Shown here: one piece after another, positions 13,012 to 13,034 of the stretch
Layout of the letters: each line of letters opens with the position of its first letter
How positions within the stretch are numbered: position 1 is the stretch's first letter
Origin: a virus
Taxonomy: Duplodnaviria; Heunggongvirae; Uroviricota; Caudoviricetes
DNA length: 41,232 nucleotides
IMG/VR virus record: IMGVR_UViG_2877263951_000005
Direction: 5' to 3' (one strand)
The notes under the pieces: generated by a model
Seen by the model: the letters and a program-made list of their open reading frames with translations, nothing else
Databases searched by the model: none
What the model was told of the DNA's origin: nothing
Program-made: the position numbers and the translations under genes

Positions 13012-13034
13012 TAATACGACTCACTATAGGGAGA
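13012..13034 (+). promoter_or_regulatory. exact T7 RNA polymerase promoter consensus
   Basis: TAATACGACTCACTATAGGGAGA read directly at 13012-13034 (predicted +1 G at 13029). Confidence 0.85.

Follow-up and report, generated by a model that had tools for sequence, protein, structure and literature searches.

The described systems most comparable to the element reported here are mainly phage satellites. P4, with its helper P2, is an integrative element whose late operon is activated by the helper's transcription machinery, which interferes with the helper and which carries defence genes, and in these respects the present island would be alike. P4 differs, however, in being 11.6 kb long, in having its own primase-helicase and origin, in using helper activators on sigma-70 promoters, in redirecting the helper capsid and in carrying a cos site, whereas the island has no replication genes, has promoters suited to the helper's own RNA polymerase and a putative helper-type origin, and would have a virulent helper. 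Neither a P4-like alpha primase-helicase nor Sid, Psu, Delta or a cos site was found, and Pfam and PHROG scans of the island proteins showed no such domains. According to published descriptions, cf-PICIs (for example, EcCI2) are about twice the size of the island and carry a whole head and packaging module (portal, protease, terminases and connectors) together with replication genes; their helpers are temperate and are needed for tails only. Of such a capsid and packaging module the island shows only a predicted HK97-fold capsid protein and a scaffold-like DUF6971 protein and, like satellites in general, it lacks a full virion or replication gene set of its own.

PICMIs and VEIMEs are also very small integrase-bearing elements, some of them with virulent helpers (PMC9618062). 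They differ in their marine hosts and in carrying AlpA, Fis, TerS and replication genes, with no helper RNA-polymerase promoters or helper-type origin reported, and VEIMEs have no capsid genes, unlike the long islands described below. VEIMEs are packaged as concatemers in full-size helper capsids (PMC9618062), a route that by analogy may be open to a 4-6 kb island. When a T7 promoter and an AT-rich origin are placed on a plasmid, the T7 machinery makes packageable concatemers of it (Chung and Hinkle 1990, as cited in PMC9860248). These plasmids are laboratory constructs with the T7 pac region, whereas no pac or terminal-repeat mimic is recognised in the island; together with the VEIMEs, they provide a precedent for concatemer packaging in phage heads (PMC9860248; PMC9618062). 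Among such elements, the island is probably a phage satellite or phage-inducible island that is distinctive in how it would sense and use its helper. In the literature searched, which leaves out most subscription journals, we found neither chromosomal T7-promoter islands nor satellites of T7-like phages described. To our knowledge no satellite of T7 is known, though T7 is among the best-studied phages.

The DNA analysed here, called the window, is 41,232 nt long. As the preliminary description had pointed out, it carries the 23-bp T7 promoter consensus TAATACGACTCACTATAGGGAGA base for base at 13012-13034 on the plus strand, in a single copy that remains the sole match in the window even when three mismatches are allowed. 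Its view that such a match does not arise by chance was borne out by 100 dinucleotide-preserving shuffles, which gave no match, and the +1 G falls at 13029, exactly where it had been placed. The promoter starts 88 bp past the integrase stop codon, and 23-27 bases are identical between it and the T7 promoters phi6.5, phi10, phi13 and phiOR. The gap of about 780 bp said to be free of open reading frames was also found, the next plus-strand frames of at least 60 aa starting at 13710 (TTG, 64 aa) and 13808 (ATG, 69 aa). Two products had been suggested for the promoter: a replication primer fits the AT-rich origin-like repeats and primase-site arrays downstream, while a purely noncoding transcript does not agree with the protein-coding operon that lies downstream in intact copies. 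What had been overlooked is that the promoter belongs to a mobile integrase island at a tRNA-Gly gene.

We compared 12 T7 proteins (the RNA polymerase and 11 others) with the window and found no homologue encoded there; the promoter is therefore an orphan that depends on an incoming phage. From the exact consensus and its conservation, T7 RNA polymerase would be expected to be active on it. Expression of the island is likely to depend on a phage polymerase, and the promoter is very probably a maintained part of the mobile island, as judged from the sequence comparisons given below. The features of the window copy are as follows.

11131-11205, plus strand: tRNA-Gly(UCC), the last gene of a lambdoid-prophage tRNA cluster (ARAGORN).
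11183-11205, plus strand: attL core, the tRNA-Gly(UCC) 3' end TTCGATTCCCGCTGCCCGCTCCA, aligned with E. coli glyU junctions.
11206-13989, plus strand: island remnant, comprising the integrase, the control/origin region and ~60 codons from the start of the first operon gene (tblastn), with attR missing.
11320-12924, plus strand: tyrosine integrase of 534 aa, apparently intact (Pfam, PHROG).
13012-13034, plus strand: base-for-base match to the T7 class III promoter consensus (-17 to +6; +1 at 13029), directed into the island operon.
13076-13174, plus strand: conserved block in the leader, candidate for a structured RNA or ssDNA element (comparison, pairing model).
13204-13233, plus strand: conserved motif TATGGTCTCT...ACAGGGGCTTAAC at the entry of the AT-rich region, with a TGGTC primase site, in all aligned islands.
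13229-13382, plus strand: AT-rich region, about three tandem 47-bp units based on ACTTAAAG (TRF, GC content).
13384-13412, no strand assigned: inverted repeat GGTGATGATATTTATAATAATCAATCACC, read from the sequence and conserved in E. coli and Klebsiella islands.
13417-13554, plus strand: short tandem repeats CTATAGGTCTCT (6 copies) and CTCTATGGCC (4 copies), with GGGTC/TGGTC on the plus strand (TRF, primase-site map).
13600-13647, minus strand: tandem repeats CCTAGAGAGAC with GGGTC on the minus strand, inverted with respect to the 13417-13554 array (TRF, primase-site map).
13700-13807, plus strand: leader of the first operon gene, conserved between islands, with GTCCTGCTGGTCTCCCTT at 13722-13739 (sequence comparison).
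13808-13989, plus strand: 5' part of a Rha/Ant-type DNA-binding protein gene, truncated by IS1 (Pfam Phage_pRha, E 7.6e-10).
13990-14758, no strand assigned: IS1 copy bounding the remnant, 99.5-99.9% identical to the three other IS1 copies of the window.
14759-15707, no strand assigned: 3' 949 bp of a 1264-bp IS3-family element, adjoining the IS1 (window self-comparison).

At the left end of the island, ARAGORN finds four tRNA genes at 10895-11205, with tRNA-Gly(UCC) the last. In an alignment with the E. coli glyU junctions, identity begins at the 3' end of the tRNA and continues into the island. The tRNA cluster also occurs in E. coli VL40, at 99.6% identity, the match stopping exactly at 11205, the last base of the tRNA-Gly; by this comparison the VL40 cluster is an empty site. 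The first tRNA of the cluster is called Met(CAT) by ARAGORN and Ile in the RefSeq annotation. The integrase matches Pfam Phage_integrase (E 1.2e-17) and PHROG 1 integrase (E 1.5e-45), has a DUF6538 match slightly under the Pfam cut-off (25.1 vs 27 bits), and is 94.8% identical to that of the intact E. coli island L001.

At its right end the window copy is broken. A noncoding stretch of about 880 bp separates the integrase from the start of the Rha-type gene at 13808, and homology to the L001 Rha stops at 13990, where the IS1 begins (its identification is also supported by IS1 annotation in phage records). When the proteins of L001 were searched against the window by tblastn, only the integrase and Rha residues 1-41 gave matches, and no second att core was found in the window. 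The operon is thus severed by IS1 at 13990 and lost beyond codon ~60 of its first gene. The window copy could at most still be transcribed and perhaps replicated in place, and the biological interest lies in the family of islands more than in this locus. Near its N-terminus the truncated Rha-type protein has a (QQP)n tract, encoded by a perfect 9-bp repeat CAACAACCA of 5.7 copies at 13814-13864; the repeat has fewer copies in the Shigella-like relative L008 and is absent from L001.

In intact members of the family, the integrase and the noncoding region match E. coli chromosomes at 86-95% identity, beside tRNA-Gly(CCC) (glyU) and actS, and a 151-bp probe spanning the promoter has matches in 91 of 5426 complete E. 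coli genomes, all of them chromosomal. The islands end in a 23-bp direct repeat of the tRNA-Gly 3' end and measure 4.1-4.3 kb (short type) or 6.0-6.5 kb (long type), copies with IS elements being larger (L005, 5.6 kb; L001, 7.3 kb). Since the E. coli and Klebsiella copies sit at the chromosomal glyU and the window copy at tRNA-Gly(UCC), the integrase accepts two tRNA-Gly targets, whose att cores have 19 of 23 bases in common. Integrase relatives with 65-87% identity occur in 17 other Enterobacterales species, at tRNA-Gly(CCC) wherever the tRNA is in view. TGTAACC direct repeats lie at both island ends (L001 22230-22330, window 11270-11300) and are likely the integrase arm-type binding sites of attP. 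The attP junction of an excised island would be expected to read TCTTCGATAC + 23-bp core + TGACCTTTCTTAAAG.

Each island carries 4-8 genes, with the integrase and the att repeats present (attL only in the window copy). In the short type, the integrase and noncoding region are followed by a KilA-N protein of 187 aa and a protein of 105 or 157 aa; in the long type, by a DNA-binding protein (Rha or another), a protein of 60-76 aa, DUF6971 and a protein of 326-402 aa. The short 4.2-kb type, which has no capsid gene, is the common one in E. coli. The long type, to which the window copy is nearest (94.7% to L001), is widespread among the NCBI E. coli and Shigella assemblies. Pfam and PHROG scans and the 12 T7 proteins revealed no polymerase, primase, portal, terminase or tail gene in the islands, nor was an excisionase gene recognised.

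Every E. coli island examined, short or long, as well as the Shigella-like copies, carries between one and three exact copies of the T7 promoter, spaced about 120 bp apart, on the same strand as the island genes, and the exact sequence is retained in the E. coli islands despite flanks that are only 86-94% identical. At a distance of 0.1-1.5 kb (mostly 0.3-1.3 kb) past the integrase, almost all of the integrase relatives in the 17 species have promoters that belong to the same family but differ in their specificity bases. Klebsiella copies carry the exact K11 consensus along with promoters of the T7 type and of other types. In the K. pneumoniae ATCC 13883 island these are AATTAGGGCACACTATAGGGAGA, an exact T7 promoter, a K11-like variant and AATTAGGTAGCACTATAGGGAGA; AATTAGGGCACACTATAGGGAGA matches K11, KP32 and K5 at 100% and is an annotated promoter in K11, and AATTAGGTAGCACTATAGGGAGA matches another group of Klebsiella phages that includes KN4-1. 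A Citrobacter promoter is 94% identical over 36 bp to T7-like phages of Cronobacter, Citrobacter and Enterobacter, and its best match in records of standard orientation (Dev2, SH4, SH5 and IME278) is the promoter near the right genome end. Among the metagenome copies the promoter modules are shuffled. The helper-type promoters thus vary with the T7-like phages of the host, and this pattern, known here from sequence alone, argues that they are selected for being read by the polymerases of local T7-like phages. The short islands also have a second, degenerate promoter-like site CAATACGACTTACTAATAGGAGA with five mismatches, about 600 bp past the first (L002 17517, L006 9689, L007 9661), which is not present in the window copy.

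The leader block between the promoter and the operon, about 100 nt long, is conserved more strongly than any other part of the island, the integrase included. Its core 23-mer CGCATCCTTTCAGGGGCGGGATG (13082-13104) recurs unchanged in at least five genera (E. coli, Klebsiella, Rouxiella, Edaphovirga and strain RIT691), and the block is closed by the stem ACTTATCG/CGATAAGT. A four-helix model of 24 pairs is 99.8% paired in 17 distinct sequences, the same ones from which it was built, against 28-39% in controls with slid partners; three pairs are changed on both sides, these changes separating only two lineages. The fold of a single sequence is unremarkable (z = -1.9), and an Rfam scan of 12800-14000 gave one weak match far below the family threshold and none that was credible. 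The modelled structure remains a candidate, and the block could be a primer-forming leader or a binding site.

The layout further downstream resembles that of a T7 origin, in that one to three tandem promoters lead into an AT-rich tract (23% GC over 13229-13390), as one or two do in T7, with the difference that the tract lies 200 bp past +1 in the island and less than 20 bp from the promoter in T7, so that the layouts are similar, not identical. T7 has its primary origin in the interval that separates its RNA polymerase gene from gene 1.1. When the AT-rich region was compared with a 2.3-Gb phage collection, its best non-promoter matches were Teseptimavirus genomes; the location was checked for IME15, where the match (6218-6267, 84.6% over about 50 bp, E 5e-4, in low-complexity DNA) lies in the gene 1/gene 1.1 intergenic origin region. 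Local alignments of the tract to the T7 primary origin, to the region past phiOL and to the SRL (left-end CCTAAAG) repeats score above all 300-500 shuffles, these also being alignments of low-complexity AT-rich DNA. Beyond AT-rich YTAAAG repeats, no similarity was found to the T7 terminal repeat, the concatemer junction/pac or the region past phiOR. The T7 GGTGAT...ATCACC repeat past phiOR is loosely similar to the inverted repeat at 13384-13412, the similarity not being significant.

Pentamers of the GGGTC/TGGTC type are the recognition sites of the T7 primase. In the island, GGGTC, TGGTC and GTGTC are enriched about 4-6 times on both strands, a figure partly inflated by the tandem repeats, and the 300-bp stretches richest in primase sites in the whole window fall in the noncoding region. 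Taking the layout, the tract and these arrays together, we consider it fairly probable that the AT-rich region functions as an origin. No terminator-like site was found between the promoter and the first gene, and the class II pause signal ATCTGTT is absent. The leader of the first operon gene (13700-13807) is kept in the islands of E. coli, Klebsiella, Enterobacter, Buttiauxella, Shimwellia and Pectobacterium.

A fold search assigns the capsid-like protein of the long islands a putative HK97 fold, with matches that include the size-redirecting protein Ccm of SaPI and encapsulins, on a structure model of moderate confidence (pLDDT 68.5). The protein belongs to no Pfam family, had no PDB sequence match by profile, and gave no tblastn match among 50,697 phage records. 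DUF6971 lies directly upstream of the capsid gene and has a charged helical tail at its end; that it is a scaffold is a guess. Past the capsid gene the long islands have a hydrophobic open reading frame of about 21-23 codons (Klebsiella L011 10715-10780, E. coli L001 21959-22030), and in Klebsiella a hairpin with a T-run lies directly past the capsid gene.

In many islands a DUF4145 gene overlaps the integrase, and PADLOC identifies it as RAZR/PD-T7-4 (L005 protein, E 2e-100), a zinc-finger plus DUF4145 (HEPN) protein as in the PADLOC model. BLAST or Pfam DUF4145 finds homologues in L011, L014, L028 and many metagenome copies, the window copy having none. The only other PADLOC results were a weak match of the KilA-N protein to PD-T4-2_B and a negligible one of the integrase to SduA. 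RAZR acts as an RNase in abortive infection and protects against T7 and T3, whose portal proteins activate it (PMC13017515), and its gene, as PD-T7-4, was noted by Vassallo et al. to overlap an integrase gene often (PMC9519451). Term searches of these two papers turned up no native T7 promoter and, on the element, only the remark on integrase overlap. RAZR lies upstream of the island promoters and is therefore outside their control.

Based on the above observations, we propose that the promoter is a T7 RNA polymerase promoter in the control and replication region of a 4-6.5 kb tRNA-Gly-integrating island that probably exploits T7-like phages. The RNA polymerase of an incoming phage would fire the promoter array, which the host polymerase is not expected to do. 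The transcript would cross the structured leader, reach the AT-rich T7-origin-like repeats and there prime the phage DNA polymerase, and the primase-site arrays on both strands would let the phage primase-helicase set up bidirectional replication. The same transcript would serve as mRNA of the co-oriented operon, encoding a Rha/KilA-N DNA-binding protein along with a small helical protein, to which the longer type adds the scaffold-like DUF6971 protein and the predicted HK97-fold capsid protein. The amplified island would be excised by its own integrase and packaged with phage parts, either in heads built or reshaped with its own capsid protein or as concatemers in phage heads, so that it would spread as a satellite and harm the phage. 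Island membership, the maintenance and host-specific change of the promoter and the origin-like layout are seen in the sequences themselves, as is the capsid fold, at the moderate confidence of its model; from these we infer every dynamic step, namely transcription, priming, excision upon infection and packaging. For packaging and transfer of the island in particular, our judgement is evenly divided.

The explanation that competes most directly with a satellite is a phage-triggered defence island that does not transfer, in which the promoter acts as a sensor switching on toxic or interfering genes (KilA-N/Rha and a head-poisoning capsid-like protein); the promoter and origin array might further soak up the phage polymerase and replisome, and the island would move by other means. 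The presence of the T7-active abortive-infection RNase RAZR/PD-T7-4 (PMC13017515) in many islands speaks for it, as do the HK97-fold matches to Ccm and encapsulins and the common E. coli type without a capsid gene, which also counts against a satellite. No packaged or excised form was found either: neither an excised circle, an attP junction, a concatemer nor a virion-derived copy appeared in the IMG/VR or metagenome scans, collections that make a weak test. The IMG/VR scans (promoter plus flank, and the conserved 23-mer) gave three contigs only, which are Shigella-like chromosomal copies and not virion evidence, and the 22 metagenome loci found with the 23-mer include none that is circular or has an attP junction, the island ends that were reached being joined to the tRNA or host flank. 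Further points against a satellite are that neither a pac mimic nor a terminase, portal or excisionase gene was recognised in the islands, and the question how an integrated copy would escape when T7 degrades host DNA. However, a pure sensor needs the promoter only, leaving the origin-like AT-rich repeats and primase-site arrays unexplained; an element that has an integrase, att repeats and two target tRNAs and is spread over many genera, yet has no transfer genes, calls for a carrier; and RAZR, lying upstream of the promoters, is not controlled by them. We regard a pure defence island as rather unlikely.

An integrase followed by a T7 promoter, in a window full of decayed prophage DNA, might also be what is left of a temperate T7-like prophage that kept one promoter beside its integrase. 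The intact relatives are, however, complete at 4.1-6.5 kb between their att repeats, all 12 T7 proteins (among them RNA and DNA polymerase, primase-helicase, portal, capsid and terminase) are without a homologue in the window or the islands, and the island capsid protein matches none of the 50,697 phage records, which makes such a remnant highly improbable. The preliminary description had also allowed for vector or assembly contamination, and the sequence is indeed the one used in laboratory vectors. Here the promoter keeps its position across the 91 complete genomes of E. coli and in Klebsiella, where the cognate K11 promoter is present, the locus recurs in metagenomes, and the flanks are conserved island DNA, not vector. 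Conserved promoters with host-dependent specificity, together with the shuffles, exclude both contamination and a functionless chance match, whose remaining probability is negligible.

If the satellite reading is correct, a mobile element can sense and exploit a virulent phage in a new way, through cis-acting promoters and an origin that the phage's polymerases read, in place of its own regulators and replication genes. It would give RAZR a genomic home and a rationale, and would account for the T7, K11 and related promoters that occur naturally in the chromosomes of clinical E. coli, Shigella and Klebsiella. The use of T7-like phages in therapy would be concerned as well, through interference and transfer of island DNA, and the promoter arrays would be a natural record of the phage polymerase specificities circulating in each host genus. 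With about even confidence, we suggest that the islands represent the first satellites of virulent phages of the T7 type (Autographiviridae), elements that have no replication genes, sense the helper through promoter arrays, use a T7-type origin to recruit its replisome, make or remodel heads in the long form with an HK97 capsid protein of their own, swap promoter types with local phages and often carry RAZR.

The four IS1 copies of the window (6303-7071, 13990-14758, 23163-23930 and 30942-31710) are at least 99.5% identical, as are the copies of the 1264-bp IS3-family element, which is full at 8913-10176, 28112-29375 and 39480-40743 and partial at 14759-15707. Two longer duplications pair 48-1153 with 32713-33817 and 17670-18381 with 35655-36366. 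An IpaH-type type III effector gene with LRR and NEL E3 ligase domains lies at 36576-38291 on the minus strand. Amid IS elements and tail-fibre remnants, 18612-22061 on the minus strand holds a metal ABC transporter of four genes (a ZnuA-type binding protein, an ATPase and two ABC-3 permeases), which by gene sizes we take to resemble the sitABCD iron/manganese system. The IpaH-type gene, the IS elements, the prophage remnants and the metal transporter suggest that the window comes from the chromosome of a Shigella or an enteroinvasive E. coli. At 34101-34295 on the minus strand there is a further Rha-type match, a distant one with 34% identity to the island protein, which belongs to a different prophage remnant and has no connection with the island.
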